Shown here: positions 7,248 through 49,642 of the stretch, in pieces
Layout: every line of letters begins with the position of its first letter
Numbering within the stretch: position 1 is the first letter of the stretch
Assembly (NCBI GenBank): GCA_964566795.1
Contig: CAZMIU010000001.1
Coordinates: 150,764 to 214,763, forward strand
DNA from: an uncultured Candidatus Saccharibacteria bacterium
GTDB lineage: Bacteria > Patescibacteriota > Minisyncoccia > Phycocordibacterales > SBAW01
Direction of reading: 5' to 3'
Length of the DNA stretch: 64,000 nt
Made by a program: the position numbers and the translations under genes
The notes under the pieces: model-generated
The model's database searches: none
What the model was told of the DNA's origin: nothing
What the model saw: only the letters and a program-made list of their open reading frames with translations

Positions 7248-7293
7248 GTTTTTAAATTCGCTTTTTTATTGGTGATTGATTTCGTACGCTTCG

Positions 7294-7641: not shown

Positions 7642-7650
7642 ACAATTGTG

Positions 7651-8607: not shown

Positions 8608-8656
8608 AACTCAATCGTTGAATATTAATCTTAATAATGTTTGACCCTAAAATAAG

Positions 8657-9268: not shown

Positions 9269-9297
9269 AAGAGTTTGGAATTCGTTACAGGGTTTGA

Positions 9298-9726: not shown

Positions 9727-9742
9727 ATAAATAGATTACAGA

Positions 9743-10120
9743 TTAGGTCTTGCTCTCCTTGCGGCGGCCCGAGCCCATGGTGCGGCGGACGTTGCCACGT
9801 ACGGTGCGGGAGTTGGTCTTGGTGCGCTGGCCGCGTGCGGGCATGTTCTTTTGGTGGCGGGAGCCGCGGTATGAGCCAATATCCTTCAGCCGCTTAATGT
9901 TTGCGGACACCTCGCGCTTAAGGTCGCCCTCGAGCTTCAGCACATCGAGCTCCTTACGCAGGGCGTTCTCCTCATCGGCCGACAGCTCGTCTGCGCGCTT
10001 AAACGGGTCTACCTTGGCTGCCTTGCAGATTGCCTTGCCGCGGGAAATGCCAATGCCGTAGAGCGCCGTAAGTGCGTACGGGACGTGCTTGTTGGGGAGT
10101 GTAATGCCTGAAATACGCAT
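9743..10120 (-). CDS. rpsM: 30S ribosomal protein S13
   Basis: MRISGITLPNKHVPYALTALYGIG... matches uS13. Confidence 0.9.
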   Translation of the reverse strand: MRISGITLPNKHVPYALTALYGIGISRGKAICKAAKVDPFKRADELSADEENALRKELDVLKLEGDLKREVSANIKRLKDIGSYRGSRHQKNMPARGQRTKTNSRTVRGNVRRTMGSGRRKESKT

Positions 10121-31180: not shown

Positions 31181-31228
31181 ATCGGCCTTACTCTACAATA
31201 CTTTTTAGCTTTTAGCGACCTTATTCTT

Positions 31229-31831
31229 TTAGGAGTTGCGTAGGACTGTTTCTACAGAAATGAGCGTATTAGCATCTACACCAAACACACGCAAGAGAGT
31301 AAGGAGTGATTGTATTTGACCTTCAGTAAACGAGCCGGTCTTGAGCGTCTCTGCACCCAACACAAGGCCAGTGCGAGTGCGGTCGCTCCTGCCTCTGCCT
31401 CCGCCACCGCGGCTTCTATTTGAGCGGGGTTTATCCTCAGGAACTGGAGTCGGTGCTGTAACGGTTACAAAAGCAAGGTTTTTTTGAACAGTCTCGCCGC
31501 TTACAAATTCGCTCTGAGTAACAGGAGTTATGCCCTGCACCTCGCTTTCGCTTGGCTTCTGGACACTAAACGTTATCAAACCGTCGCCCTCTCCCACGAG
31601 CAGCTTTTGCTTAATAGGCTCTGTATAGCCATACACTCCCGCTTCCTGGGTAGTCACGCTGCCTGCCAATTCGGCGCCGTAGTATGCCCGTACAACCGTA
31701 CCTGTGGGTGCTGGAGCACCGTCTATGGTTACATTTCCCCAAAACGACATCGGGAACGCCGGCATAGCTGCCGATGCCATAGCTGGAGCCACAAACAGTA
31801 CAAAAGCAATAAGAAGTTTTTTCATAATCAT
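31229..31831 (-). CDS. Hypothetical secreted protein (signal peptide, Gly/Arg-rich linker)
   Basis: MIMKKLLIAFVLFVAPAMASAA signal peptide; no family. Confidence 0.45.
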   Translation of the reverse strand: MIMKKLLIAFVLFVAPAMASAAMPAFPMSFWGNVTIDGAPAPTGTVVRAYYGAELAGSVTTQEAGVYGYTEPIKQKLLVGEGDGLITFSVQKPSESEVQGITPVTQSEFVSGETVQKNLAFVTVTAPTPVPEDKPRSNRSRGGGGRGRSDRTRTGLVLGAETLKTGSFTEGQIQSLLTLLRVFGVDANTLISVETVLRNS

Positions 31832-31834
31832 GTA

Positions 31835-33016
31835 TTAGCGGATGAAGAGTCCCGTCACAGTATCGGTGCTCATGTCTGAGATGTTGGTAGTGTAGAGGTT
31901 TGCATGACTATCGCCGTAATCGACATCCCACTTAAGGCTTGTTATGCGCACACCAACCGCACCATTATCTACTCCGGTGGGAATAACTACTGTGAAAGTA
32001 AAATTCCTTGTTGTTCCAGGTTCTATCACGTAGCTCCTGTCTCCAGGTATCACCAAGTCATCATCACTAACACCGTCATCAGCGGTAATTATTGCAACAT
32101 ATGTTGAAGTGCCTGTGGTGGAGTCAGTGGTAGTTGCCCATGTCGTACCGTCGTTTATACCTGTTGGAGTTGCCACGGCCCCAACCGTGTCTCCATCAAG
32201 ATGGATGTCCATATCACCCAACGCTGTTACTTTAAATTTGATCTTGAACTCAACAGAATCAGCGTCGCCTGCGATAGCGCCGTTGGTGCGCACCTCAGAG
32301 CTGCTCACAAATTCTGTAGTAATGCCCGGCTCCTCTATGACAGGTACTAGTTCATCTTGGAAGCCGTTATAGTTTGCGCCAGCGTTCTTAATGTATATCG
32401 CATATCCTTTTGTCTCCCTAAAGTCGTGTAGGCTATTTACATCTGCAGGAACAACGACCTTCCACGGGTCGGTAACTGCAACACTATCCCTATTGGTAGG
32501 AAACAAACTGTCAGTAAAATCTACAACCAAGTCGTATGCACCGGTAAGCAGACCGAGTATCTGGCTCGGGTTGTTGGTATCAACCGCATTTGAGCCGACA
32601 GTTTTTGCATACTCAGCATTTGCAACACCAATAGAGTACCAACCCGTGGAGCCAAATGTGCGCTCAAACAATTTTTCATTTGGTGCCAAACCAGACTTGT
32701 AGTTAAAAGTTAGAGTTTTAGAGCTACTTGTTTTGTTATTTATAAAGTAGCCATATAGAGGCTGAAACTCAGTCTGACCAAGATCAGCCATGGTCACCCA
32801 CCCAGAAGGCGCAGAGGCGTCCAGAGCGTATATGTCGAAATTTTCAGAAGTCTCAGCTGCAGAAAAAGAGTGAGAGTCAAGCATCTTTGGGGTCGAAACA
32901 CTATTCCAACCAGGGGCAAGAGTAATATCCTCGCTATACAACACCGCTGCAGAAGAAGATACAGGAACACAAAGTATTAAAATTGCAAACAGACCCACCG
33001 AGTATGCGCGATTCAT
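31835..33016 (-). CDS. Hypothetical secreted Thr/Asp-rich protein (putative surface/adhesin-like)
   Basis: ORF 31835-33073. Start likely MNRAYSVGLFAILILCVPVSSSA (signal peptide) at 33016. Confidence 0.45.
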   Translation of the reverse strand: MNRAYSVGLFAILILCVPVSSSAAVLYSEDITLAPGWNSVSTPKMLDSHSFSAAETSENFDIYALDASAPSGWVTMADLGQTEFQPLYGYFINNKTSSSKTLTFNYKSGLAPNEKLFERTFGSTGWYSIGVANAEYAKTVGSNAVDTNNPSQILGLLTGAYDLVVDFTDSLFPTNRDSVAVTDPWKVVVPADVNSLHDFRETKGYAIYIKNAGANYNGFQDELVPVIEEPGITTEFVSSSEVRTNGAIAGDADSVEFKIKFKVTALGDMDIHLDGDTVGAVATPTGINDGTTWATTTDSTTGTSTYVAIITADDGVSDDDLVIPGDRSYVIEPGTTRNFTFTVVIPTGVDNGAVGVRITSLKWDVDYGDSHANLYTTNISDMSTDTVTGLFIR

Positions 33017-33062
33017 ATGCCGCAATCTAAACATAGATGCACAATAATGCAAAGAGGATACT

Positions 33063-33677
33063 CTACTCGCCATTTTTGCCTAACCAGGCGGCTTGGCGGC
33101 GCCACTCGTTCTTCTTCCACTCCGGGGCCTGGTCGGTGGGGCCAAAGCGCGACAGCTTTACCTTAAACCCGGCAAACCACAAAATCCCCTTCTTTATCTC
33201 GTTGGTATAGTCGCCAAACACAAGCCAGATAAGGTACGGGTGCGTGCCCGACAGCACCACAACGCGCGCACTCTTGCCCTTAAGACGCTTGTACCAGCCG
33301 GTGGCCGGTGTCCCCTGAGCGGTTTTCCTCATGTTAAATGCAAACCCGGGCAGCCACACGCGGTCAAACAACCCCTTAAGGAGGGCGGGCATGGTGCACC
33401 ACCAGTTGGGATATATCACTACAAAATGGTCGCACCAGCGCACGTTGTCTTGGAACTTAAGTAAGTCGGGCTCCAGCGCCTGTATCTCCTTGTAGCCTTT
33501 GTGCAGTATCGGGTCAAACTTCATCTCGCCGAGGTTCATCCGACGCACCTCGTGCCCAGAAGCCTTGGCCGCTGTCTCGTATAAAAGCGCCATCTCGCCC
33601 GAGAGCGTATGCGTGGCATCAGGGTGGCCAAGCAGTATAAATATCTTTTTGTGGCTGTGGTCCTTGAAAAACGACAT
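33063..33677 (-). CDS. Flavodoxin-like-fold NAD(P)H dehydrogenase (quinone), MdaB/KefF/YwrO-like
   Basis: KIFILLGHPDATHTLSGEMALLYE... is the Flavodoxin_2 N-terminal signature. Confidence 0.65.
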   Translation of the reverse strand: MSFFKDHSHKKIFILLGHPDATHTLSGEMALLYETAAKASGHEVRRMNLGEMKFDPILHKGYKEIQALEPDLLKFQDNVRWCDHFVVIYPNWWCTMPALLKGLFDRVWLPGFAFNMRKTAQGTPATGWYKRLKGKSARVVVLSGTHPYLIWLVFGDYTNEIKKGILWFAGFKVKLSRFGPTDQAPEWKKNEWRRQAAWLGKNGE

Positions 33678-34699: not shown

Positions 34700-34799
34700 G
34701 GCCTTATCATAGCGCGGAAAAAATTGATCCCGTCTAGTTTGTGCCTACAAGTTCATTTTCGTCGTCACGAAAATGTCTCGCAGGCCCGCCTCGCAGTCC

Positions 34800-34966
34800 T
34801 GCCAGTGCAGGATATCACTCCGGCCTCCACCTCGTGGTCAGGCGTTCAAAATCGCCGTCGCGATTTTGCCGCACGACCCTGCCTCGCGGTTTTGCCAGTG
34901 CAAAACATCGCTCCGGCTTCCACAAAAGCAGAAAACCACCCGCAGGGGTGGCTTTTCTGTCTTTTG
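34800..34966 (-). repeat. Conserved tRNA-Ala 3'-flank, copy A (terminator hairpin plus ~90 nt shared with 49341-49450, with an internal ~35-nt tandem duplication)
   Basis: About 87 nt are identical to the sequence downstream of the tRNA-Ala(TGC) at 49268, in inverted orientation. It contains the hairpin gccacccctgcgggtgg followed by ttttctgcttttgtgg. Confidence 0.7.
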
Positions 34967-35039
34967 TGGACCCTACCGGGATCGAACCGGTCACCTCTTC
35001 CATGCCATGGAAGCGCTCTACCAAATGAGCTAAGGGCCC
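34967..35039 (-). tRNA. tRNA-Ala (anticodon GGC)
   Basis: Cloverleaf folded by hand: acceptor GGGCCCT/AGGGTCC with G3:U70, anticodon loop AUGGCAU, T-loop TTCGATC, 73 nt, no encoded CCA. Confidence 0.8.
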
Positions 35040-35084
35040 TTATATACCGAGGCATTCTATCACAGCGCAATATTTTTAAACAAG

Positions 35085-35110
35085 AAAGGGCCGCGCGTGC
35101 GCGGCCCTTT
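35085..35110 (-). terminator. 9-bp GC hairpin (gggccgcgc-gt-gcgcggccc) with flanking A/T runs
   Basis: Directly downstream of the minus-strand gene 35114-35413. Confidence 0.5.
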
Positions 35111-35113
35111 ATG

Positions 35114-35413
35114 TTACTGCAGACGCACCCGGAAATGCGCTGCGTTTACCGTACGCAAGAGCCCAAGCCCTTTTGCAAACTGCTGTCTTTGCGGCACAGT
35201 CAGCTTGCCCGGCTTGAGTTGCGACTCAAGCGTATTGGCAACCTCAGCCGGTGACATATGCTCCGGGAGCATAAGATATGTCGGGCCAAAAGCTTTGGCG
35301 ACCAGCTCATAAAACTGGCACAATGCCTCGGTCTCACTCCCCCAGTCGTCGCGGGAGCCGTGCATACCGCAGATAAGACCCTGGGCCAGCTCCCCGGCGC
35401 TCACACTCTTCAT
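35114..35413 (-). CDS. Hypothetical protein (99 aa)
   Basis: ORF with balanced composition and a downstream terminator; no family. Confidence 0.35.
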   Translation of the reverse strand: MKSVSAGELAQGLICGMHGSRDDWGSETEALCQFYELVAKAFGPTYLMLPEHMSPAEVANTLESQLKPGKLTVPQRQQFAKGLGLLRTVNAAHFRVRLQ

Positions 35414-35438
35414 TGGTATCCTCCTTGTGCTGCCTGCT

Positions 35439-36182
35439 TTATAAACCCTGCCCTTTGGCCAAAAGTTGCGCCTGAGCCAGATCCTCCGGGGTATTGATAC
35501 CGTATCCCTCTTCCGGTGACAACCTCACGGTCACAACGGGCTTGTTGTCGGCCAGGGCAATCTCCACCAGGTCGGTTATATGATACTCACCTGTACCCTC
35601 ATTGCGCTTGATCCTCTGCACAGCCGCCTTGAGCCATGCCGCATCACCGCAAAACACATTGGGGTTTACCTCCCGTATCAGCTTCTCATCCTCGGAGGCG
35701 TTTTTATACTCGACAATGCGTGCAAGTGTGCCGTCTGCGTTGCGGACAATCCTGCCAAAGCGCTCAAACGCCGCGCACCAGCCCTCAAACGACTCTACCT
35801 CCACAATACCCATAACAAGAGGCTTGCCCGGCGTGGTATGAGCTTTTTCTAAATTGGCGATAGTCTCTGTGTGCAAAAAGGGGTGGTCGCCGTTGACCAC
35901 AACCACCGTTGCGTCACCTTCGAGTATATCCAGGCCCTGCCTGAGCGCGTCTGCCGTGCCCTCTATTGTTGCTACCTCCACATAGCGGTTGTCGCCCAGC
36001 GCCTGCATAACCTCCTGCGCCTTGTGCCCCACAATCACTATAGGTGTAAGACTCCCCGACTTGGCAAAGGAATGTATGATGCGCTGCGCTATGGGCACGC
36101 CTGCAACCTTGTGCAGGCACTTGGGGAGCTCTGAGAGCATGCGTGTGCCTTTACCCGCAGCAAGGATTATCGGCTGGACCAT
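35439..36182 (-). CDS. Sugar-phosphate nucleotidyltransferase (GlmU N-terminal-domain-like)
   Basis: ILAAGKGTRM nucleotide-binding loop and NTP_transferase fold; 247 aa, no acetyltransferase LbH domain. Confidence 0.7.
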   Translation of the reverse strand: MVQPIILAAGKGTRMLSELPKCLHKVAGVPIAQRIIHSFAKSGSLTPIVIVGHKAQEVMQALGDNRYVEVATIEGTADALRQGLDILEGDATVVVVNGDHPFLHTETIANLEKAHTTPGKPLVMGIVEVESFEGWCAAFERFGRIVRNADGTLARIVEYKNASEDEKLIREVNPNVFCGDAAWLKAAVQRIKRNEGTGEYHITDLVEIALADNKPVVTVRLSPEEGYGINTPEDLAQAQLLAKGQGL

Positions 36183-36193
36183 AGCAATTCAAA

Positions 36194-36430
36194 TTACAGG
36201 ATTACTGTTGCGCCCGCGGCGTTCACCTCGAGTACTCCTCCGTCTATGGCAAACAGCTTGGGCTCGTCCCCTGCCGCCAGATGCACGCGCAGGTCGCCCT
36301 TTTTGAGCGTAGTGATAAGCGGCTCGTGCTGCCCCAATACAGTCATCTCGCCCGCGGCCCCGGGAGCGTTGAGGCTGTACGCCTCGCCCTCAAAGAGAGT
36401 TTCGTTTACTTTGGCTATAACCAGATGCAT
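36194..36430 (-). CDS. atpC: F1 ATP synthase epsilon subunit, truncated (beta-sandwich only)
   Basis: 78 aa matching the epsilon N-terminal domain, at the end of the atp operon. C-terminal helices are absent. Confidence 0.7.
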   Translation of the reverse strand: MHLVIAKVNETLFEGEAYSLNAPGAAGEMTVLGQHEPLITTLKKGDLRVHLAAGDEPKLFAIDGGVLEVNAAGATVIL

Positions 36431-36519
36431 GTAGGGATACTAGCACAGCACCCAATGTAATAAAAGAAAAAACCCCGGGGTATGAAGCCCCGGGGCTGTT
36501 GTACTTCTCCTGCCGGAGG

Positions 36520-37341
36520 TCACACCAGCAAGATATCGTTGTGTACGCTCGCTTCGACGTGCGGGATGCCGACGAGGTCCACAGTAGTAACGTCGAACTC
36601 GAGCAGGCCGGGCTGGAAGGCATAGGGTTGGACCCCGGCCGTATTGGGATCCATGTCCATAATTGCCGTGTAGAAGGCCAGGTTCTGGTCGTTCTGCGTG
36701 ACAAACGCCGTGCCCGCGTCGTCCATGATAGGCCGGTTGCCTTGCGCGTCTTCCCAGACAATGTGGGAACCGTTGGGGTTGGCAACCGGGTCGTACTCGG
36801 CATGCAAGGTGTAGTCGAGCACCTCGCGACCGCTCGTGTCGGTAAACTGCAGGCGGATAAAGATATCGTGATCCTGCAGGTACGACTGGAGCGACTCGCC
36901 CTGGCCGTCGGTGTTGGTGCTGATAGACCAGCCAAAACTGGTTGCAGCACGCCCCGCATGTGCGACCGGCACATTGTGTGCCGGGTCGATTACTTGCGGG
37001 CCGTCGGGTGCCACGAACTTGAAGGTGTCTTGCGCGAAGGTCGTCGGCAAGATGCCGTCGCCCTGGCGGTAGTGCACTTCAGTGCCGATCTGCAGATGCT
37101 CCCGGGCGTTGTTCTCGATCTGCCAGCCGTTTGGATCGTTGCCGGCGCCGCGCCATATATTGCCCGTTGCCGGGTTGATCGCGGAGTCGTCGAGGGTCGC
37201 ATTCTGGAATGTCTGCGACCGCAGCGTCCATGGGGTCAGATCGAGGAGGAACGGCACGAACGCATCATCGATGTGCCCATCGTGGTTCCGGTCGAGAAGG
37301 CGCGAAAGGAATCGGGACAAGGGATGTCTCCTTGATTGCAC
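36520..37341 (-). CDS. Hypothetical Asp/Asn/Thr-rich protein with EF-hand-like DRNHDGHIDD motif, inserted between atpD and atpC
   Basis: Minus-strand ORF. A likely TTG start sits 6 nt after an AGGAGA SD. Strong GC3 bias (TTC/ATC/CCG/ACG/GCG) differs from neighbouring atp genes. The overlapping plus-strand ORF is R/V/L-rich antisense. Confidence 0.4.
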   Translation of the reverse strand: MQSRRHPLSRFLSRLLDRNHDGHIDDAFVPFLLDLTPWTLRSQTFQNATLDDSAINPATGNIWRGAGNDPNGWQIENNAREHLQIGTEVHYRQGDGILPTTFAQDTFKFVAPDGPQVIDPAHNVPVAHAGRAATSFGWSISTNTDGQGESLQSYLQDHDIFIRLQFTDTSGREVLDYTLHAEYDPVANPNGSHIVWEDAQGNRPIMDDAGTAFVTQNDQNLAFYTAIMDMDPNTAGVQPYAFQPGLLEFDVTTVDLVGIPHVEASVHNDILLV

Positions 37342-37378
37342 CAGCCCACCATGGGCCGGCTCCGCTAGCGAAAGTAAC

Positions 37379-37395
37379 CCATTTTTTAAAAATGG
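37379..37395. promoter_or_regulatory. AT-rich perfect palindrome CCATTTTT-T-AAAAATGG between atpD stop and the inserted ORF
   Basis: Seen directly in the sequence; candidate operator or processing hairpin. Confidence 0.3.
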
Positions 37396-37419
37396 TCAAT
37401 ACTGCCTATGAAGGGAGCA

Positions 37420-39702
<2,283 letters not shown>

Positions 39703-39716
<14 letters not shown>

Positions 39717-41256
39717 GTAGCGATATAAACTTCTCCAACTGCGTCTTGATCTCAGCTTCAGTCTGGTTCACCATGTCACGCGCCTTGGCAATACTTGAGA
39801 GCACCTCCGGGCGCTCGGCATCAAGGTGCGCCAAAAACTTAGCCTCAAACTCGGGCACTTTCTCGACCGGTACTTTCGCCAAGTAGCCGTTGACCGCCGC
39901 ATATATGACCACCGCCTGGCGCTCAAACGGCAGGGGCTCGCCGTTTTTCTGGCGGAGTGTCGCCATCATGCGCTGGCCGCCATCGATGCGACGCTTGGTG
40001 TCCTCGTCGAGATCAGAGGCAAACTGCATAAACGCCTCGAGCTCCCTAAACTGTGCAAGTTCGAGCTTGATGCGGCCGGAGACCTTCTTCATCGCCTTAG
40101 TCTGTGCGGCAGAGCCCACGCGCGACACCGAGTTGCCGGCGTTAATAGCGGGGCGCACACCCTTGTTAAAGAGGTCGGTCTCAAGAAATATCTGGCCATC
40201 GGTAATCGAGATCACGTTGGTGGGCACGTAGGCAGAGATGTCGTTCTCCTGGGTCTCGATAATGGGGAGCGCGGTTAAGGAGCCTCCGCCCAATTCCTTT
40301 GAGAGCTTGGCTGCGCGCTCGAGCAGACGAGAGTGGAGGTAAAAGATGTCGCCCGGGTATGCCTCGCGGCCCGGCGGGCGGCGCAAGAGCAAAGAGAGCT
40401 GGCGGTAGGCCACCGCGTGCTTGGAGAGGTCGTCGTAGATAACGAGCGCATCCTGTCCCTTTTGCATAAAGTACTCGCCTATCGCTGCACCCGCAAACGG
40501 TGCCAGGTACTGCATGGCAGCCGGTGCCGAGGCGCCTGCGTCTACAACTATAGAGTACTCAAGTGCGCCCCGCTCGCGCAGTTTTTGCACCAGGCGCGCG
40601 GTCTTAGACTCCTTCTGGCCGATGGAGACATAGATGCACACGGGGCGCGACTCCGCGGCTTCAGACTTTTGGTTGAGGATGGTGTCTATCGCAATGGTGG
40701 TCTTGCCCGTACCGCGATCGCCGATGATAAGCTCGCGCTGGCCGCGGCCGATCGGGATCATCGAGTCTATAGCCTTGATACCCGTATGCAGAGGCGTGTT
40801 GACCGACTGGCGCTCAATAACGCCGTAGGCCTCGCGCTCAATAGGGTTGCGTGCCTTGGTTTTTATCGCACCCTGGCCATCGAGCGCCTCGCCTAGTGGC
40901 GAGACAACACGGCCCAAGAGCTCCTCGCCCACCGGCAACGAAAGTACCTCGCCCGTAGAAAACACACTCATACCCTCCGACACCAGGCTGGTGTCGCCCA
41001 ATATAATGACGCGCACCGACTCCTCCTCGAGGTTTAACACCACACCGTACACTTCGGCCTTGGTCTCGATGGCGTCTTTAAGCGCCTTGCCATGCGCGAT
41101 ATCAAAGCGAACCATCTCAGACATCTTTGCACCCGCGAGGCCCTCGATCTGTGCTACACCGTCGCCCACACGCACCACAACACCCGCGTCTTTGGGGCGC
41201 GAAGACGGCTCAAAGCCTTGTATCTCTTTTTTAAATTGCTCAATAAAGTTGTTCAT
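39703..41256 (-). CDS. atpA: F1 ATP synthase alpha subunit
   Basis: Walker A GDRGTGKT, 517 aa. Confidence 0.97.
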
Positions 41257-41260
41257 ATGT

Positions 41261-41497
41261 TCATGCGGTGAGTTTCCTATAGAGCTCTAACAAAATGCGG
41301 GTTTGTGCCTGGTCTGGTGTTTCTTCTTTCTGCTTTTGCAGTCTCGCGTCGTGCTCAACCAGTTTTTCGTATTCTGCGAGTATCTGCGGGAGGAGATTTT
41401 CGTGGCCGCGGCGCTCGAGAACTTTTTTAAGCCCGGCCAGATGTTCTTTTTTGGCCCCAAGCTGGTATATCCCCTGTGCGTAATCTTTGGCCAACAT
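41261..41497 (-). CDS. atpH: ATP synthase delta (OSCP) subunit, truncated to the N-terminal domain (78 aa)
   Basis: AKDYAQGIYQLGAKKEHLAG... aligns with the delta N-terminus. The ORF is squeezed between atpF (5-nt gap) and atpA (4-nt gap). Confidence 0.55.
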   Translation of the reverse strand: MLAKDYAQGIYQLGAKKEHLAGLKKVLERRGHENLLPQILAEYEKLVEHDARLQKQKEETPDQAQTRILLELYRKLTA

Positions 41498-41502
41498 AGG
41501 TA

Positions 41503-41943
41503 TTACTTCTTTAATGCCTTCTCCATTCCCAAAACAATAAGCTTGGCTACCTCTTCTTTAGACTCAGCGATAGCTTTTGATTTTTCCTCTTTAGCCTGGG
41601 CCTGCGCCTGGGCAACTATAGACTCGGCGCGCTTGCCTGCCTCATCCACTATCTCGCGCTCGCGCGCACTTGCCGCAGCGCGTGCGCGTGCAAGCGCCTC
41701 GTCGGCCTCCTGTGCCGCCTTCTGAAGTACACCGGAGCGCTCGTTCTCAATCTCTTGCCTGGCCTGGCTCGCCGCCTCGGCATCCTCCACGCCCTTGAGC
41801 ACCTTTTGGCGGCGCTCCTCGAGCATTTTCATAACCGGCCCGTACAGGAAGTACCACAACCCGAGCATGAGCAGGCCGAAGTTGATCATGTTGATGAGCA
41901 ACAAGCGCCAGTCTATGCCAAATGTGTGGAGAATTGAGTCCAT
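41503..41943 (-). CDS. atpF: Fo ATP synthase subunit b
   Basis: N-terminal TM helix plus long charged coiled coil. Confidence 0.8.
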   Translation of the reverse strand: MDSILHTFGIDWRLLLINMINFGLLMLGLWYFLYGPVMKMLEERRQKVLKGVEDAEAASQARQEIENERSGVLQKAAQEADEALARARAAASAREREIVDEAGKRAESIVAQAQAQAKEEKSKAIAESKEEVAKLIVLGMEKALKK

Positions 41944-41954
41944 GTGCAGGCGGT

Positions 41955-42040
41955 GGGAAATTTGTTCGGAAAAATAGTCTGGCCCGCAAGGCTCATAGCC
42001 GAGACGGGAGACCCGAGGACTTTTTTCTGGGCAAATTTCC
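41955..42040. repeat. Structured intergenic element, copy 2 (between atpE and atpF): 9-bp closing stem GGAAATTTG/CAAATTTCC around the conserved core
   Basis: Core 41968-42028 is homologous to 25150-25198 with compensatory base changes (CCTG/CAGG to CCCG/CGGG; gggct-tcg-agccc to ggct-cat-agcc). Confidence 0.6.
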
Positions 42041-42047
42041 TAGAGCT

Positions 42048-42284
<237 letters not shown>

Positions 42285-42301
42285 TTACTTAATAACTATG
42301 T

Positions 42302-43075
42302 CTAATGCGCCCCATGCGGCTCGTCGATGGCAATCTTGATGAACGCCATCGTGAGTATCGCAAACACCGCCGCCTGCAGGAGCCCGATGAACATCTCGAA
42401 CGCCATAAGCGGCACGGGGAGGATGAGGGGCACGAAGGTGCCCACAACCAACAGGAGTACGTGTCCAGCAAAAATGGCCCCAAAGAGCCTGAAGCTAAAC
42501 GAGATCAGGCGCGCCAAGTTGCCGATAAGCTCCAACAGCCCCACAGCAAAGCCCATTGCACCTCCGCTAAAGTTAACAAACTTCGAGCCGTATCTCAATA
42601 CGCCCAGTGTCATGATGCCGGAGACCTCGATGACAAAAAACGAGATGATGGCGAGTGCGAGCGTGGTGTTTAAATCAGCATTAACTGCATGAAAGAGGCT
42701 CGTAAGCCCGTGATGCTCCCCCTCCCCCACAAGCCCGACCGTGCCATAGATAGGCAAAAAGTCGAACATGTTGGCCACAAAGATAAAAATAAAAATGGTC
42801 GCGATGAGGGGGAAGTAGCGCAGCGCAAGAGCGCGGCTGCCTAAGGTGGCCTCTATAAGCCCCAGGAGGTACTCAAAAAACATCTCAATGCCGGCCTGTA
42901 TGCGGCCCGGCACCATACGCAGGCTGCGGCGCAGGAGCCAGGCACTGACAAGGAGCGCGGCCATCACCAGCCATGTTGTTAACAACGAGCTTGTAACCGG
43001 CAGCACGCCAAACAAACTAAACAGGCGCTCTGACGCGAGCGATATATGCAGGCCCTCCTCCATACTTGCTGGCAT
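42302..43075 (-). CDS. atpB: Fo ATP synthase subunit a
   Basis: Five-TM protein with conserved Arg in the penultimate helix (LRLFGNI-like region). Confidence 0.9.
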   Translation of the reverse strand: MPASMEEGLHISLASERLFSLFGVLPVTSSLLTTWLVMAALLVSAWLLRRSLRMVPGRIQAGIEMFFEYLLGLIEATLGSRALALRYFPLIATIFIFIFVANMFDFLPIYGTVGLVGEGEHHGLTSLFHAVNADLNTTLALAIISFFVIEVSGIMTLGVLRYGSKFVNFSGGAMGFAVGLLELIGNLARLISFSFRLFGAIFAGHVLLLVVGTFVPLILPVPLMAFEMFIGLLQAAVFAILTMAFIKIAIDEPHGAH

Positions 43076-43216
43076 TCTAGCACAGAGCGCCTCCTGAGGC
43101 GACCCTTATGCATGGCGTACGTGCTAGTATTGTGTGGTAAGCGTGACCACAGTTGGGCGTCTACATGTGTGGCAGTACCTTGTGCGCATTAGCAGTCAAA
43201 TATACAACACAACATT

Positions 43217-43759
43217 ATGTCATTTATTTCAATAGCAATCGCAGCACTGCTCGCAGTGGGCGGCGGCGCATCTGTCGCGGCTCAGGGCAGCGTCCCCGGC
43301 GACGCGCTCTATGGGCTTAAAATCGGCGTTAACGAGAAGGTGGAGGCAGCACTCGCCTTCTCAGACGAGGCTAAGGCAGACGAGCACCTTGAGGCCATTG
43401 CAGAGCGCCACGAGGAGGCAAAGAAGCTTGAGGCCAAGGGCAAGCTCGATGTGCAGACCAAAGCCAGCCTCAATGCCAACATAGACGCCCACGCCAAGGC
43501 ATTTGCGACCGCACTTGCAAACGTCAAGGCGCATGGCAGTGCAGAGGCTGTAGCACAGCTTGAGACAAAGCTTGAGGCCGCACTTGATGCCGCGGCTGGC
43601 GCAGACACGTCTGCCTCGGCAAAGGCCAACGCCAACCTAAACGCAAATGTTAATTCCAACGCACAGGGCTCTGCAACTGGCACCATGAACTCGGCCAGTA
43701 CCTCGGGCCAGGGTGCTGTAAAAGTTGAGACCAACAACGGTGTGCGTGTCGAGCTGTAA
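43217..43759 (+). CDS. Hypothetical secreted Ala/Lys/Glu-rich helical protein
   Basis: Signal peptide MSFISIAIAALLAVGGGASVAAQ; low-complexity coiled-coil-like body. Confidence 0.45.
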   Translation: MSFISIAIAALLAVGGGASVAAQGSVPGDALYGLKIGVNEKVEAALAFSDEAKADEHLEAIAERHEEAKKLEAKGKLDVQTKASLNANIDAHAKAFATALANVKAHGSAEAVAQLETKLEAALDAAAGADTSASAKANANLNANVNSNAQGSATGTMNSASTSGQGAVKVETNNGVRVEL

Positions 43760-43780
43760 AATTAATACTCTATCGAGGAC

Positions 43781-43806
43781 AAAACCGCCCACCCGGGCGG
43801 TTTTGT
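43781..43806 (+). terminator. Hairpin ccgccc-accc-gggcgg plus TTTT
   Basis: Immediately after the 43759 stop. Confidence 0.5.
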
Positions 43807-43852
43807 TTACTGCCTGTACCAGGGCCACAATTCCTGATATATTTCCAAGCGT

Positions 43853-43890
43853 AGTCAAACGGGATGTGGTAATTGGTATCGTACGCCCGG
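43853..43890 (+). pseudogene. tRNA-Pro 5'-half-like fragment
   Basis: cgggatgtggtaattggtatcgtacgc matches the first ~30 nt of the downstream tRNA-Pro, then diverges. No foldable 3' half. Confidence 0.3.
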
Positions 43891-43903
43891 TCGGAAACTT
43901 AGT

Positions 43904-43974
43904 CGGGATGTGGTATAATGGTATTACGTACGCTTCGGGTGCGTATAATCCGAGTTCGATTCTCGGCATCCCGA
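43904..43974 (+). tRNA. tRNA-Pro (anticodon CGG)
   Basis: C1:G72, discriminator A73, anticodon loop UUCGGGU, T-loop TTCGATT; 71 nt. Confidence 0.75.
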
Positions 43975-44010
43975 CTAAGTTTCCGACAAAATAAAAGAGG
44001 GTGTGTAGCC

Positions 44011-44037
44011 GGACGTGAGTTCGGTTCTCGGCATCCC
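44011..44037 (+). pseudogene. tRNA-Pro 3'-half duplicate (T-arm plus acceptor)
   Basis: gagttcggttctcggcatcccgact differs from the intact tRNA 3' end at one position. It lies 36 nt downstream of the intact gene. Confidence 0.4.
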
Positions 44038-44057
44038 GACTAGTTTAAGATCCGTTT

Positions 44058-44131
44058 GGGCCCTTAAGCAAAGCTTACTGGCCCGGCGTTCGGTCCAAAT
44101 ACAAGCAAGCTTGTTTTTGGAAACCTCACTT
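44058..44131 (+). pseudogene. Decayed tRNA-Ala-like copy
   Basis: Starts with GGGCCCTTA (identical to the tRNA-Ala 5' end) and spans one tRNA length to the next ttGGGCCCTTA, but cannot be folded into a cloverleaf. Confidence 0.25.
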
Positions 44132-44202
44132 GGGCCCTTAGTTAAGTGGTACAACGGTGCATTCGCATTGCACAGGCGCGAGTTCGATTCTCGCAGGGTC
44201 CA
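44132..44202 (+). tRNA. tRNA-Ala (anticodon CGC)
   Basis: Acceptor GGGCCCT with G3:U70, anticodon loop UUCGCAU, T-loop TTCGATT, discriminator A; 71 nt. Confidence 0.75.
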
Positions 44203-44227
44203 CTAAACATCTGCTACCATAAGGCGC

Positions 44228-44761
44228 ATGGATACAGCGTCCGGGCTTCCCTCATCAATGGTTATAACTATCGCGCTGCTTGCGCTGTTTTTGTCGTTCT
44301 TAGTCGTGCTCAAGTACACCATTACCGACCGGTTTAGGAGCACGCGCTTTGCCATGACCTCGTTCTTCTTCTTTATCGTGGCAACGCTCAGCCTCTCGTT
44401 TTGGCAGTACACCCTGCACACGCTCCCCTATGCCGTGCCTGCGTTTGTGGTCGGCGTACTTCTGGGGTACGCGGTTGGTGTGCGCGGGGCGCAGGAGCGC
44501 CGCCGCCGCGAGGGAGAGGAGCACTACCGGGAGCATTTTGCGCACATACACATACGCGGCTCACAAAACATCACGTGGTGGACCTTTATAAACTTCTACA
44601 CCATCATGGGGGCGCTCGCGCTCATTAACCTTGTGGGCTTTAGCGTTGTCATTATGCAGAGCGAACCGTTTGCCATCATAACAAGCGCTGTGGGTGCGCT
44701 CCTTTTAGGGAGCATTGTCCCCTACCTGGCACACATCTGGAGTATCAAAGCACCGCGCTAA
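44228..44761 (+). CDS. Hypothetical integral membrane protein (about 5 TM)
   Basis: Hydrophobic ORF downstream of the tRNA cluster, convergent with cyoE. Confidence 0.45.
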   Translation: MDTASGLPSSMVITIALLALFLSFLVVLKYTITDRFRSTRFAMTSFFFFIVATLSLSFWQYTLHTLPYAVPAFVVGVLLGYAVGVRGAQERRRREGEEHYREHFAHIHIRGSQNITWWTFINFYTIMGALALINLVGFSVVIMQSEPFAIITSAVGALLLGSIVPYLAHIWSIKAPR

Positions 44762-45459
44762 GCCAGCGCCACAAGCGCCGCACAGCCCATGAGGAGCACC
44801 ACAAGCGAGAGCCTAAACACCAGCTGTGCCTGGCGTTTTTGTTTCTGACTAAAGGGCCCGCGGACATACATAGGCACCCCGGCCGCCTTATACTCCTCTG
44901 CTCTATATATAGATATCGCCACAAAGTGCGGCAGCTGCCAGACAAACAAAAGCACAAACAGTACAAGCGCTGTGGTATCGAACGTGCCGGCCACGGCGGT
45001 ATAGCCCACCACCGGAGGCGTAGCTCCCGCAATGGCACCGACAAAAAGCGCGTGTGCAGAGCGATGCTTGATGGGCGTGTACAAAAGCACATACGAGACC
45101 CAGCCCAGGACCGCCGCCATAAGCGCCTCAAATGTGGTGAGTGCAAGCAATGATAAGCCCGCCGCCAAAAGCACGCTACCCCACACAAGGGCATGGTTGG
45201 TGGGCACATGGCCCATGGGGAGCGCGCGGCAGCGCGTTCTCTCCATAGCGGCATCAATGCCGCGGTCCCAGTAGTTATTAAACACGCACCCGGAGGCGAT
45301 AACACACCCCAACCCCGCAAGTGTGAGCAGGGGTGCAGATATATTGAACACGCCGTGGCTCGCAAAGTAAAAAGCTGCAGCGGCCACCACCACGTTGGCG
45401 TATACCATGCGGGGTTTGGCAAGCTCGTAGTAGGCGCCAAGCGCAAGCGTGTTAGTCAT
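44758..45459 (-). CDS. cyoE: Protoheme IX farnesyltransferase (heme O synthase), UbiA family
   Basis: UbiA-family Asp-rich motifs (NxxxDxxxD-like: NNYWDRGIDAAMERT), 7-8 TM, last gene of the oxidase operon. Confidence 0.85.
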   Translation of the reverse strand: MTNTLALGAYYELAKPRMVYANVVVAAAAFYFASHGVFNISAPLLTLAGLGCVIASGCVFNNYWDRGIDAAMERTRCRALPMGHVPTNHALVWGSVLLAAGLSLLALTTFEALMAAVLGWVSYVLLYTPIKHRSAHALFVGAIAGATPPVVGYTAVAGTFDTTALVLFVLLFVWQLPHFVAISIYRAEEYKAAGVPMYVRGPFSQKQKRQAQLVFRLSLVVLLMGCAALVALA

Positions 45460-45823
45460 TGGAGTTTTGCGGAGTTACTACACCCTCAATAAACGGCGTG
45501 TGGCTAGTGTGTGTCTCATGGCCACGGGCGTTGAGCTCCTGCATAATCCACAGCGTCCCACCCACCAGAATCACCACCACTACACAGGCAAAGCACAATG
45601 CTAAGAAGTTATAGCGGGGCGAGCGCTCTTCCCCCATATGCATAAAGAAGTACAACTGCACCAACAACTGCAGCACAGCCGCGGCGACAAATGCAGCAAT
45701 CATCACGCCGTGGCCCGGGTACGCATGGTCTGCGGCCTCATGCATCCACAGCACATACACCGGTGCCAACGTTAAGAGCAGCGAGAGTGCATAGCCTGTG
45801 ATGTATGCCTTGAGATGGTTCAT
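45452..45823 (-). CDS. cyoD: Cytochrome bo3 quinol oxidase subunit IV
   Basis: Small 3-TM protein between subunit III and cyoE. Confidence 0.65.
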   Translation of the reverse strand: MNHLKAYITGYALSLLLTLAPVYVLWMHEAADHAYPGHGVMIAAFVAAAVLQLLVQLYFFMHMGEERSPRYNFLALCFACVVVVILVGGTLWIMQELNARGHETHTSHTPFIEGVVTPQNSND

Positions 45824-46398
45824 GAAATGCCAAGTGCGCCAAACAGGTACACAAACGTAAATATGAATATCCAGATGATATCAAGGAAGTGCCAAAACAG
45901 CGCGAGGCACGCAAGCTTGGTCTGTATCCCCTCGCCAAACCCCCTAAACCACACATGGGCTATAACGACACACATCCATATGCTCGCCGCGAGTACATGC
46001 AGCCCGTGCGTACCCAGGAGCGTAAAGAATGCGGAAAGGAATGCGCTTGTATCGGGCCCGTGTCCCTCGCCTACAAGCTTGGCAAACTCATAGACCTCCA
46101 TCCCAAGGAATGCGAGTCCAAGAAATAATGTGAGCTTGAGCAATGCAACAGTCAGCACGCGCCTACGTGCCTGTGCGGCCAGGGTGGCAAGCCCCATGGT
46201 AAAGCTCGAGGTAAGGAGTACAAGCGTTTCTGCGAGCACAAAGGGCATGCTTACCAGGCTCTCTATTGCGGGCCCGCCAAATGTCTCGGGCACAAGCACC
46301 ACATAGGTGGCAAACAGCCCGGCAAACAACACGCAGTCGCTCATGATGTATATCCAGAAGCCGGATGTCACCAGGTCTTTTGTAGTGCGCGTGCTCAT
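45820..46398 (-). CDS. cyoC: Heme-copper oxidase subunit III
   Basis: Five-TM subunit III fold. Confidence 0.8.
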
Positions 46399-48314
46399 AT
46401 GCGTATTGAAATTTCCCTTACTTCTTCAGATACAAACGAGCGCACGACAAAGCATCCAATGCATCCTACAAGGGCAAGCGCTGATAGCCACCAGATATGC
46501 CAGACAATGGCAAACCCGAGGACAACCGCGGCGCCGCCCACAACAAGGCCAAGTGCGCTGGGGGCGGGCATGCGTATCGTGCCCTCCTTCTGTGACATGA
46601 CAAGCGGGGTCCCGTGCTTATGCTCCCAGTATGCGTCGCGCCCGTGCACGTGCGGTATCGAGGCAAAGTTGTAGGCAGGCGGCGGGCTAGAAGTAAGCCA
46701 CTCGAGCGTGCGGCCGTCGCCCCACGGGTCGTTTCCTGCTGGGTTCTTTTTGCGGTCGCGGACAGACACGTACATCTGTATAGCCTGCATGAGTACGCCC
46801 ACCCCTATCACACACAACCCCACTGCGGCGACAATAAACAGCGGCTGCCACTCGGGTGTCACCACCACTAGGCGGCGCGTGGCTCCCATAAGCCCCAGAG
46901 CGTACAGCGGCACAAACGCCAGCAGGAAGCCCACAAGCCAGCACCAAAACGCGCGCTTGCCCCACACTTCGCTCAGCGTAAATCCAAAGAGTTTGGGGAA
47001 CCAGTACGCAAACCCGGCAAAAAACCCAAACAGTACGCCCCCAATAATCATGTTGTGGAAGTGCGCCACCAAAAACAGCGAGTTATGGAACTGGAAGTCC
47101 ACCCCGGGTATCGACATGAGAACGCCTGTCATGCCGCCCAAGATAAATGTGGAGAGAAAGCCCATGTACCAGAGCATGGGTGTCGCAAAGGTGATGCGCC
47201 CCCTAAACATGGTAAAGAGCCAGTTAAACACCTTGACCCCGGTGGGTATGGCGATCACCATGGTCATAATCCCAAAGAACGCGTTTACATTTGCCCCTGC
47301 ACCCATGGTAAAGAAGTGGTGCACCCACACCACAAACGACAACAGCGCTATGGCCATGGTCGCCAACACCATCGAGGCGTAGCCGAACAGACGCTTTTTT
47401 GAAAACACGGGGACAAGCTCCGAGAATATGCCAAAAGACGGGAGTATTAAGATGTAGACCTCCGGGTGGCCCCACGCCCATATGAGGTTTATATAGAGCA
47501 TCGCGTTGCCGCCCAGGTCGGTGGTAAAAAAGTGCATCCCCAGAACCCTGTCGAGCGAGAGGAGCGCGAGTGTGACCGTGAGTATCGGGAACGCAAATAC
47601 CACGAGTATCATGGAGGCAAGCGTGGTCCAGGCAAACACCGGCATCTTCATAAGAGTCATGCCCGGTGCACGCTCTTTTAAGATCGTTACAATAAAGTTA
47701 ATACCGGCGAGCAATGTGCCCACGCCGGCGATCTGGAGCGCCCATATGTAATAGTCTACCCCTACCCCCGGACTGTACTGGAGCTCGGAGAGCGGCGGGT
47801 ATGCAAGCCACCCTGTAGCGGCAAACTCGCCCGCAACAAGCGATATGTTAAGGAGTATCGCTCCTGCTGCCGTGAGCCAAAATGAGACCGAGTTGAGCAG
47901 CGGGTACGCCACATCGCGCGCACCAATAAGGAGCGGAAGGGCGAGGTTGATGAGCGCAAACATAAACGGCATCGCCACAAAAAAGATCATGATCACGCCA
48001 TGGGCGGTAAATATCTGCGCGTAATGGTCCGGCGACAAGTATCCCTCGCTGCCGGGCAAGCTAATAGCCTGCTGGGCGCGCATCATGGCGGCATCCACCA
48101 TGCCGCGCACAAGCATCACACCGGCAAGCACAAAGTACAGTACGGCAATCTTTTTGTGGTCGAGGCTACAGAGGTATTCGCGGTACAGCCAGCCCCACTT
48201 TTTAGTAATGGTCATTAAGACCACAAACAGGGCGCCACCCAGCACAACCATAAGTTGCGGGACTGTCTCAATGGGCCCGTGTATGAACGCGGCTGGGGTG
48301 AGCAGTCCCAGCAT
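46395..48314 (-). CDS. cyoB: Heme-copper oxidase subunit I (quinol oxidase type)
   Basis: 12+ TM, conserved His ligands (WAHHFF, HHxxxGG region), 639 aa. Confidence 0.95.
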
Positions 48315-48315
48315 A

Positions 48316-49170
48316 TTAATGGGTGTCTTTAAGCGGCGAGCGGGTGTCCATATACTTCCCCACTATGGTCTCAAAGAGATTTGGCTCAACACTGGCGTAA
48401 TACATGGGGCCCGCGGGGACGCCGGGCTCCAAGAGACCCTTATATGCGTCGTGGCTCAGAGACACCCCGCCCTGTTTAATACTCTCTACCCACGCGTTGT
48501 ATCCTGCAGTGTCGGTGGCCGAGACGCTAAACTTCATCTTAGAAAAGCCCAGCCCGCTGTAGTTGGCCGAGGCGCCGGCATACACGCCAGGCTCTGTTGC
48601 CACGAGGTTTAGCCTCGTGGTCATGCCGGTCATGGCATATATCTGCCCGCCCAGCTGCGGAACCCAAAACGAGTTCATAGGCGCGTCTGCCGTTACCCTA
48701 AACTCCACAGGCCTGCCCACGGGCACCACGGCGTAGTTAACGGTGGCTATCCCCTCTTCTTTATATATAAAGAGCCACTTCCACTGGAGCGCCACGGCCT
48801 CTATGACAACCGGCGGGCCGCCCGCAAGCGCCTTAGCCGGGTCAAGCTGGTGTGTGCTGCCCCAGGTGAGCGCCCCGAGCACCAGGACAATCTCAAGCGG
48901 CACTACCCACCAGACAAACTCCTCGAGCTTGCCGTGCTCGGCGTTGGGCGCGTGCTTGGCTTTGTGGTTGGAGGCGCGGTATTTGTACGCAAAGAAAAAC
49001 AGAAGGAAGTACACCGGGATAGCCACGATGAGCATAAACTCTACCGCGTGGAGCATGAGCGTGCGCTCTGCCAAAGCGATAACACCCTTGGGGTTTAAGA
49101 CCGCAAACGCATCAAACATGCCTATATCATACCCCGCCTTTTTATCACTAGAACACAAACATCGATACAC
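48316..49170 (-). CDS. cyoA: Quinol oxidase subunit II (no CuA site)
   Basis: Cupredoxin domain ...[45 protein letters not shown] aligns with CyoA. It lacks the CxExCGxxH CuA motif of cytochrome c oxidases. Confidence 0.85.
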
Positions 49171-49267
49171 AAGTGGTGCTAAGCACCCATATTTTTAAAA
49201 AAGTGTGGTGTAGTACTTGATATTGAAAAACAGATATTTATGAGCTATTGTATGAGGGTCCGTGCAA

Positions 49268-49340
49268 GGGCCCTTAGCTCATCTGGTAGAGCGCCTCATT
49301 TGCAATGAGGAGGTGACCGGTTCGATCCCGGTAGGGTCCA
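49268..49340 (+). tRNA. tRNA-Ala (anticodon TGC)
   Basis: Acceptor GGGCCCT/AGGGTCC with G3:U70, anticodon loop UUUGCAA, T-loop TTCGATC, 73 nt, no encoded CCA. Confidence 0.8.
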
Positions 49341-49450
49341 CAAAAGACAGAAAAGCCACCCCTGCGGGTGGTTTTCTGCTTTTGTGGAAGCCGGAGCGAT
49401 GTTTTGCACTGGCAAAACCGCGAGGTGGAGGCCGGACCGGTATTTCCCCT
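49341..49450 (+). repeat. Conserved tRNA-Ala 3'-flank, copy B (terminator hairpin plus ~90 nt shared with 34800-34966)
   Basis: cacaaaagacagaaaagccacccctgcgggtggttttctgcttttgtggaagccggagcgatgttttgcactggcaaaaccgcgagg is identical to the reverse complement of the copy-A flank. Confidence 0.7.
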
Positions 49451-49642
49451 TCATTGACCCTTTAGGCGGCCGGTGTAGGATATGCCCTTAGTACCGGCAG
49501 GCACCTCGGGAGGGACCATGACGCGCATACGACACGTCTTGTCGCTGACGGCCATACTAGTATCCTTCGGGATAATTGCCGCAGTGACGGTCGGGGCATT
49601 CAACTAAGATGAGACAAAACGGGCGCAGCAATGCGGCCGTTT

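Follow-up and report, generated by a model that had tools for sequence, protein, structure and literature searches.

Inverted tRNA-Ala genes around a respiratory gene block share a probable gene-conversion tract and a structured repeat unit in their trailers

The DNA analysed here is a 64-kb stretch (the window) of contig CAZMIU010000001.1 from an uncultured Candidatus Saccharibacteria bacterium, in which two tRNA-Ala genes in inverted orientation, 14 kb apart, bracket a block holding the atp and cyo operons. The two arms of this inverted repeat are probably paralogous copies of one module, in which a tRNA-Ala body is followed by a terminator-like hairpin (H0) and then by the leading hairpin of a structured unit; recent gene conversion would have equalised the arms, and the unit would act at the RNA level. 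Covariation shows the structure of the unit to be conserved, with selection acting on the tRNA-sense strand, and the unit is apparently an undescribed structured RNA repeat of Paceibacteria. The inverted repeat reflects conversion between tRNA-Ala paralogues and is not evidence of a recent island transfer or a genome switch. In this reduced genome the respiratory block is a colinear cluster that is old and has been inherited vertically. Positions below are those of the window unless a locus from another genome, cited by its number (L007, for example), is named.

The inverted repeat arms

An initial annotation had placed a tRNA-Ala gene at each end of the block, on opposite strands, and had described them as parts of a long inverted repeat. 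Both genes were recovered by ARAGORN and Rfam. tRNA-Ala(GGC) lies at 34967-35039 on the minus strand (start 34966/7), with A32/U38 in the anticodon loop and without an encoded CCA, and tRNA-Ala(TGC), written UGC below, lies at 49268-49340 on the plus strand (end 49340/1). A repeat finder reported the arms as the sole long inverted pair, 160 nucleotides (nt) at 95% complementarity, and pairwise alignment gave their bounds. The left arm (34882-35041, minus) consists of tRNA-Ala(GGC), H0 and a hairpin termed A1; the right arm (49266-49425, plus) consists of tRNA-Ala(UGC), H0 and a hairpin A. Three such patterns were found, versus none expected from shuffles.

The terminator hairpin said to follow both genes is indeed the same: H0 copy A (34920-34968, minus) and copy B (49339-49387, plus) are identical. 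H0 is a bidirectional terminator-like hairpin built of an A-tract, a GC stem and a U-tract, and at its base the tRNA 3' end is paired with CTTTTGTGG. A 10-pair stem followed by a CTGCTTTTGT tail gives it the form of an intrinsic (Rho-independent) terminator, and both copies score as terminator-like on both strands, with the A-tract upstream on the opposite strand. A promoter-like site, TTGAAA-17-TATTGT (49223-49251, plus; consensus match only), stands 17 nt 5' of tRNA-Ala(UGC) in the divergent spacer common with cyoA.

All eight mismatches between the arms fall within the tRNA: the anticodon arm has seven of them and the D-loop the remaining one. The two copies are 100% identical over a 115-nt tract (34882-34996, minus; 49311-49425, plus), which spans the variable loop, T arm and acceptor 3' strand and then runs 85 nt into the trailer, through H0 and a 36-nt hairpin. 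Identity beyond the tRNA, which had also been claimed, thus continues past the terminator into hairpin A. The stem differences between the GGC and UGC anticodon arms are fully compensated, and the UGC anticodon arm has the same sequence as that of the orthologous tRNA-Ala(UGC) in L021 and L017 (the 5' end of the latter is cut). Both genes plausibly encode working tRNAs.

Gene conversion between the arms

A perfect tract beside a diverged anticodon arm points to recent gene conversion, as does the degree of likeness: the GGC and UGC trailers of the window are 98% identical, against 59% and 76% for trailer paralogues in two other genomes. Recent non-reciprocal recombination would have equalised the two trailers, starting at the variable loop and stopping where hairpin A ends. 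The near-identical tRNA bodies may have seeded it, with selection keeping the anticodon arms distinct. The right end of the tract falls in a common CGAGG/TGGAGGCCGGA motif. In this conversion the GGC locus was most likely the donor and the UGC locus the recipient; the window UGC trailer has 60-65% identity to the UGC trailers of L017 and L021 and 91-92% to the trailers of L024 (GGC) and L008. The initial annotation had called the repeat a recombination substrate. That part stands, since the conversion signature indicates that the arms have recombined; the inversion or acquisition of the block that was to follow from it is unsupported, on evidence given below.

The structured unit behind the tRNA-Ala genes

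The trailers carry a unit of ~93 to ~95 nt composed of a closing stem P1, hairpin A and hairpin B. Copy A, behind tRNA-Ala(GGC), holds two full units, in the order H0, A1, B1, A2, B2 on the tRNA strand and then the start of a gene for a protein of 338 amino acids (aa). Unit 1 (34830-34927, minus) has P1 (UUUUGU/ACGAGG), hairpin A1 (34882-34917) and hairpin B1 (34836-34879), is supported by covariation, and scores 106.1 bits (E 4e-21) with covariance model R1, described below. Unit 2 (34742-34829, minus) has hairpin A2 (34788-34824), hairpin B2 (34743-34787) and a weak P1, and scores 77 bits. What had been taken for a ~35-nt tandem duplication in copy A is this second complete unit of ~93 nt, in which only the 36-nt hairpin A is alike in sequence. 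Between the two units the stems change in a compensatory manner: GUUUUGC/GCAAAAC becomes UCCUGC/GCAGGA, CAAAAUCGC/GCGAUUUUG becomes CAUUUUCG/CGAAAAUG, and GGUCGUGCG/CGCCUGACC becomes GCCUGCGAG/CUUGUAGGC.

Copy B, behind tRNA-Ala(UGC), has H0 and a shortened unit (49390-49436, plus; 46.6 bits with R1) in which hairpin A (49390-49425) is followed by only 11 nt from the start of a further unit (TGGAGGCCGGA, 49426-49436). There is no hairpin B; the jump from hairpin A into TGGAGGCCGGA occurs at a repeated CGAGG, and the sequence beyond is unrelated. A scan of the whole window with filters off found three copies of the unit, all at tRNA-Ala genes, and none in the tRNA-Pro/Ala(CGC) cluster inside the block.

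A small protein gene in hairpin A (MFCTGKTAR...) was considered and rejected. Its start codon is lost in unit 2 (AUA for AUG), its frame is shifted by a 1-nt length change in L013, and L016 and L017 alter codons while keeping base pairs.

Conservation of the unit as an RNA structure

A degenerate pattern of hairpin A was used to scan GTDB representative genomes and JGI metagenomes. The GTDB set gave five loci, every one in a metagenome-assembled genome (MAG) of the Candidate Phyla Radiation (CPR). Of the JGI metagenome matches one, L013, was genuine, and two, L011 and L012, were due to chance. For eight units in a plain MAFFT alignment, RNAalifold gave a structure of two hairpins, with double compensatory changes in 18 of 31 pairs. 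Covariance model R1, built after the closing helix P1 had been added, found full units at 79-112 bits in L006-L010, L013, L016, L017/18, L021, L022, L023, L024 and L028. In an alignment of 14 sequences (A3), 94.3% of the cells are paired and both sides change in 31 of 37 pairs, a level of covariation reached by none of 500 shuffles; register-shifted controls gave 35-42%. The same alignment contains 43 G-U cells, one pair being G-U in 13 of the 14 sequences. On the opposite strand these cells would be A-C, so it is the tRNA-sense strand that is under constraint.

Hairpin A is near-invariant across the family. Its internal loop, NNA/GA, lies between 3-bp stems that covary, its bulge of 2 nt reads (A/U)U, and its terminal loop is CACUKG (K = G/U). 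Hairpin B has a conserved base with a G-U pair and a GYGACGRC apex (Y = C/U; R = A/G) on a stem that covaries freely, and a conserved A follows directly 3'. P1 varies by genome as a covarying helix (GGGACUUG/CAAGUCCC in L010, CGUUU/AAGCG in L007). In most units GUGG stands 2 nt before hairpin A and pairs with CCAC as P1; it is replaced in L010 and L007. Orthologous units are near-identical across genomes in which the neighbouring protein is only about 45-55% identical. For example, L022 unit 2 and L024 unit 1 have the same hairpin B, although their adjacent proteins share only ~43-51% identity with that of the window.

No Rfam 15 family matched the unit at the gathering threshold, which only tRNAs passed. 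At E<=10 the matches were at chance level; the best non-tRNA one, RNAI, reached 23 bits against a gathering threshold of 47 and was driven by the terminator hairpin. No description of a CPR RNA motif of this kind was found in the literature searched. Two scans of viral contigs yielded 0 and 3 matches, the latter ascribed to chance and left without confirmation by the covariance model, and in phage genomes blastn matched only the tRNA-Ala part and no unit.

Several known classes were tried and set aside. Signal recognition particle RNA, 5S RNA and 6S RNA have no Rfam match here, and the unit occurs in several tandem copies per locus. Type III antitoxin repeats were dropped, the array being missing upstream of the same gene in L001. 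For an attachment (att) site with target duplication, the apparent duplication proved to be the covarying helix.

Genomic setting of the units

Units are present in at least nine genomes besides that of the window, as tandem arrays of 1-3 units in 3' trailers, in a clade of Parcubacteria/Paceibacteria. They stand behind tRNA-Ala(GGC) in the window, L016, L022 and L024; behind tRNA-Ala(UGC) in the window, L017, L021 and L028; and behind tRNA-Ala(CGC) in L023, tRNA-Arg(GCG) in L008, tRNA-Asp in L010 and tRNA-Ile(UAU) in L013. Two settings are protein genes, rpsI in L007 and a gene for a 153-aa membrane protein in L009/L021. All 14 arrays lie 3' of a hairpin and are co-oriented with the upstream gene. 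Downstream they are followed inconsistently by a convergent gene, another tRNA or unrelated genes, so a 5' regulatory role is unlikely.

In L007 the full unit is found directly 3' of rpsI, at 2977-3076. The orthologous rpsI 3' site of the window (6380-6490, minus) has no unit; other hairpins (GGCCGATGCTCGCAAGCGAGCAGGCCG and a terminator) are found there instead.

Behind tRNA-Ala(GGC), three genomes have orthologous arrays. L022 and L024 have two- to three-unit arrays there in the same orientation as the window; the H0 of L024 is ~93% identical to that of the window, and the two hairpin-B types of the window recur in L024 with their order swapped. Array A is therefore ancestral, and its absence in L001 and L014/15 is better read as loss. 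An earlier idea, that the ~250 nt behind tRNA-Ala(GGC) were a recent insertion (they are missing in L001), was dropped given the orthologous arrays of L022 and L024.

Proposed role of the unit

The unit is inferred to be a cis-transcribed RNA module in the tRNA trailer. It would be transcribed with the upstream tRNA by read-through of a leaky H0 and would act at the RNA level. Each unit ends with 'stem-A-C', which copies the 'acceptor stem-A73-C' boundary of a tRNA, and H0 has a 3' strand for which two alternative pairing partners are available, the tRNA 3' end and the 3' end of the unit (P1). Both features suggest release or trimming of the unit by the tRNA 3'-processing machinery, a possible but rather unlikely step. 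A broader proposal, put forward tentatively and with somewhat less than even confidence, is that the unit represents a new functional structured RNA family specific to Paceibacteria, riding on tRNA and ribosomal-protein transcripts and freed either through self-cleavage or through end processing of the tRNA type. Its copies, inverted or tandem, would also serve as substrates for recombination by which tRNA cassettes are flipped and homogenised; the UGC locus here and the GGC locus in L014-L016 would be examples.

Several points speak against this account of the arms and the unit. The 14-sequence covariation alignment A3 was fitted to the model, which the 8-unit MAFFT alignment was not, and the sample consists of about a dozen genomes, most of them reached via the same gene neighbourhood. 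H0 looks like an efficient terminator, so that transcription of the unit needs read-through. The variable-loop base of the GGC tRNA is G, as in UGC tRNAs, in the window and L001 and A in four orthologous GGC tRNAs, which leaves the direction of conversion ambiguous. Decayed or shortened units occur in arrays (copy B of the window, L024 unit 2, the tail of L021), and no array stands behind tRNA-Ala(GGC) in the 92%-identical L001 or in L014/L015. Absence and decay together fit a dispensable or selfish repeat as well.

A selfish DNA repeat is the main rival to a unit that works as RNA. The ~95-nt unit would then resemble a repetitive extragenic palindrome or bacterial interspersed mosaic element (REP/BIME) or a miniature inverted-repeat transposable element (MITE), inserting after terminator hairpins, and the arms would be two recent insertions. 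Presence and absence at orthologous sites (L001 versus the window, L014 versus L016, and the rpsI 3' end of L007 versus that of the window) are as such a repeat would have them, as are tandem arrays with shortened members and units placed always directly after a hairpin. The GTGG ... CCAC flanks of the unit also recall the GT[AG]G that adjoins REP hairpins. However, the many dispersed copies of REP/BIME elements are not seen, the filter-free scan having found only three in 64 kb. Insertion would also have to account for the uniform orientation of the arrays with their upstream genes, for the asymmetry of the G-U pairs between strands, and for orthologous units that have stayed in place and near-identical beside highly diverged proteins. 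Hairpins A and B are unlike each other, contrary to REP doublets, and no transposase appears in any locus table. A selfish origin is thus unlikely, and the preferred account is still the RNA-level one, with paralogous arms equalised by conversion.

Comparison with known repeats and trailer RNAs

The arms resemble tRNA and rRNA paralogues in concerted evolution in having a long perfect tract, an abrupt end, a distinct anticodon arm and genome-specific identity. They differ in that the tract runs 85 nt past the gene into a terminator and a structured element, and in that the partners are inverted and 14 kb apart.

Extragenic structured repeats are known as REP/BIME in Enterobacteria and as BOX in Streptococcus pneumoniae. 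Like the unit, these are modular hairpin repeats 3' of genes, often tandem with shortened members, with compensatory stems and with a presence that varies between relatives. The unit is instead low-copy and strictly co-oriented, its orthologous copies are deeply conserved, and its sequence has no resemblance to theirs beyond the GTGG/CCAC flank. No gene for a REP-associated tyrosine (RAYT/Y1) transposase was listed in the locus tables of the ~20-kb neighbourhoods.

Among RNAs from tRNA 3' external transcribed spacers, 3'ETS-leuZ of Escherichia coli is an example; they are short, weakly structured sponges within one operon. They share with the unit a functional RNA in a tRNA trailer, released by tRNA processing, a role that here is proposed from sequence. 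The unit differs in being a 95-nt structure of three helices that is repeated in tandem, is preceded by a terminator-like hairpin and stands behind rpsI as well as behind many different tRNAs. Islands at tRNA 3' ends likewise put extra DNA directly after a tRNA, and the end of the unit copies the tRNA end and trailer (CCACAAAG). The extra DNA here is only about 150-250 nt, has no integrase, and its short repeat is the covarying P1 helix and not a fixed att core.

To our knowledge, almost no non-coding RNAs beyond the universal ones have been characterised in the CPR (Patescibacteria). A strongly covarying ~95-nt structure, as conserved as the adjoining tRNAs, is a concrete target for metatranscriptomics and biochemistry, in organisms that so far resist culture on their own.

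Arrays of tandem interspaced guide RNAs (TIGRs) are also tandem RNA-encoding arrays from CPR and parasitic bacteria, and some variants are stem-loop arrays (PMC12045711). TIGR-Tas arrays have 36-nt units with two 9-12-nt spacers in 5-15 copies, beside a tas gene with a Nop domain (PMC12045711). In contrast, the present units are ~93 nt long and occur in 1-3 copies, and their variable parts are self-complementary stems. No Nop domain appeared in the Pfam results or the locus tables, and a TIGR array was rejected on its unit size and the lack of a tas gene.

Synteny of the respiratory block

From the source names of homologues and from a DUF5667 gene, the organism was judged to belong to the Parcubacteria/Paceibacterota. 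Relatives were reached via homologues of the 338-aa flank protein and of CyoA. The synteny set comprised seven loci from five related Parcubacteria/Paceibacteria genomes. They have a common gene order, beginning UvrA-UvrC-Ddl-Pterin4a ... tRNA-Ala(UGC) ... cyoABCD-cyoE-(175 aa)-tRNA-Pro/Ala(CGC)-DUF5667 and continuing atpBEF(78 aa)AGD-(RTX-like gene)-atpC-tRNA-Ala(GGC)-338-aa homologue-flavodoxin-YchF. This order is kept in L014/15, L016, L017/18, L021 with L022 (one Adlerbacteria contig) and L023 with L024 (one JGI contig), and partly in L028. On the Adlerbacteria contig the block has the same two tRNA-Ala genes at its ends, there as direct repeats. The bracket itself is therefore old; what is specific to the lineage of the window is the inverted configuration alone. 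On this comparative evidence, the tRNA-Ala genes enclose a cyo-atp block that is ancestral and colinear, an old fixed cluster rather than a mobile or flipping island.

The initial annotation had suggested that the segment could invert. Recombination across the 160-nt repeat would then flip the 14-kb atp-cyo block, and the population would hold both orientations. RecA-type recombination has a usual minimum length, which the 115-nt perfect identity within this 160-nt, 95% repeat exceeds; the arms have evidently exchanged sequence, and both tRNAs would survive a crossover within the identical tract. Yet in no relative examined is the block inverted relative to either outer flank, and the sign of the GC skew is the same through it as in the flanks. 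The GGC tRNA adjoins atpC and the 338-aa gene, and the UGC tRNA adjoins cyoA and Pterin4a/Ddl, as they do in relatives. A Pfam scan found no invertase or recombinase among the main ORFs of the block or the two flanking genes. Inversion of the block is very unlikely.

The other suggestion, en-bloc acquisition of a respiratory module by way of tRNA genes as integration sites, is the least probable and scarcely credible. tRNA genes do flank the block. Cyo operons were already known in Parcubacteria, and a lateral origin, at least once and long ago, has been proposed for those of the CPR (PMC8407418). However, genomes in which identity of the adjacent 338-aa protein is no more than 43-55% have the block with the same neighbours, so any transfer predates the clade, and CyoA homologues are abundant in Paceibacterota. 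The flanks are two complete, different isoacceptors and not a tRNA with a duplicated 3' fragment, and no integrase was seen. Composition is not atypical: GC is 0.564 in the block against 0.558 in the rest of the window, and the tetranucleotide distance of the block is 0.0096, within the 0.0071-0.0105 of all other 14-kb window segments. Colinear synteny and matching composition leave both inversion and a recent acquisition unsupported.

What differs among relatives is the orientation of single tRNA cassettes. tRNA-Ala(UGC) points toward cyoA in L017, L021 and L028 and away from it in the window, and tRNA-Ala(GGC) is flipped along with its unit in L014-L016. An earlier flip of the UGC gene, relative to its orientation in relatives, may have created the inverted configuration seen here. 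In L021 two inverted units flank the UGC gene, and recombination between units so placed would yield such a flip, a step that we infer.

A mis-join or a collapsed repeat in the metagenome-assembled contig is a further alternative. Same-strain short-read contigs do break inside the array, and those of relatives inside tRNA-Ala genes. Both junctions nevertheless agree with the synteny of relatives, the anticodon arms are distinct and match their orthologues, and the outer flanks diverge cleanly at the common CGAGG/TGGAGGCCGGA motif. A mis-join would not give identical trailers at two loci with unique sequence on both sides. Such an artefact is highly improbable.

The contig ends themselves are as follows. 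Three Logan contigs of the same strain, from independent samples (L003-L005; runs SRR13076571, DRR685536 and SRR14271373), all end at window position 34869, inside hairpin B1, and contigs of relatives (L001/L002, L017, L019) end inside tRNA-Ala genes. The shared end points suggest further copies or variants elsewhere in the genome or population. Units and near-identical tRNA-Ala bodies break short-read assemblies of these genomes at predictable places.

Gene content of the block and its surroundings

The block had been described as nothing but energy metabolism and tRNAs. The energy genes and the tRNA cluster were found by Pfam and ARAGORN, but "everything" was too strong: an NTP_transf_3 gene, a 99-aa open reading frame (ORF), a DUF5667 gene, a 177-aa ORF and an RTX-related gene also lie between the arms. 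The atp operon (36194-43075, minus), in the same order in relatives, comprises atpB (42302-43075), atpE (42048-42275), atpF (41503-41943), a 78-aa ORF (41261-41497), atpA (39703-41256), atpG (38802-39716), atpD (37420-38790), the RTX-related gene (36520-37341) and atpC (36194-36430). The cyo operon (44758-49170, minus), also present in relatives, comprises cyoA (48316-49170), cyoB (46395-48314), cyoC (45820-46398), cyoD (45452-45823) and cyoE of the UbiA family (44758-45459).

A non-ATPase gene between atpD and atpC is found in several relatives: L014 (8231-9547), L015 and L016 (8131-9399). There it encodes a 410-438-aa HemolysinCabind/RTX-repeat protein. The 273-aa version of the window (36520-37341, minus) aligns to the C-terminal part only (33% identity, tblastn E 3e-26) and has no RTX repeats. 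Between atpC and tRNA-Ala(GGC) lie a gene for an NTP_transf_3/IspD-like nucleotidyltransferase (35439-36182) and the 99-aa ORF (35114-35413), both on the minus strand and both missing at that position in L014, L016, L022 and L024. In L021 a segment at 6929-9913, between the trailer of tRNA-Ala(UGC) and cyoA, encodes a 372-aa AAA_15/AAA_21 ATPase, a 200-aa protein and three small ORFs; from its content this insertion beside a tRNA would be defence-island-like.

The tRNA cluster (43860-44203, plus; ARAGORN) holds tRNA-Pro(CGG) at 43904-43975 and tRNA-Ala(CGC) at 44132-44203. The tRNA fragments reported for it are present. tRNA-Pro(CGG) has a tRNA-Pro-like 5' fragment of 27 nt (43860-43886) on one side and on the other a 3' fragment of 26 nt (44017-44042) that is 96% identical to the intact 3' end, and it is enclosed by a 13-nt inverted repeat (43890-43902/43975-43987). 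It looks as if one tRNA-Pro cassette were nested inside another at 43860-44042. A tRNA-Ala 5' start (GGGCCCTTAAGC) occurs near 44057. In relatives the gap from tRNA-Pro to tRNA-Ala(CGC) is 0-43 nt and holds no fragments. A leader of ~50 nt (aagcttactggcccggcg...caagcttgttttt) is conserved between the window (44070-44118, before tRNA-Ala(CGC)) and L009 (1905-1955, before tRNA-Ala(UGC) of the Adlerbacteria MAG).

Outside the block, GC falls locally to 0.476, from ~0.56 elsewhere, at 31000-33000, over a 412-aa ORF (31835-33073). Relatives have a 414-aa protein with no Pfam match at the syntenic position. Between the shortened unit and the convergent Pterin_4a gene, a promoter-like site TTGACC-16-TAGGAT lies within 49454-49607 (plus). 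A Shine-Dalgarno sequence precedes a 29-aa hydrophobic ORF with its ATG at 49519 (plus), which is 41 aa long when read from an upstream ATG at 49482.

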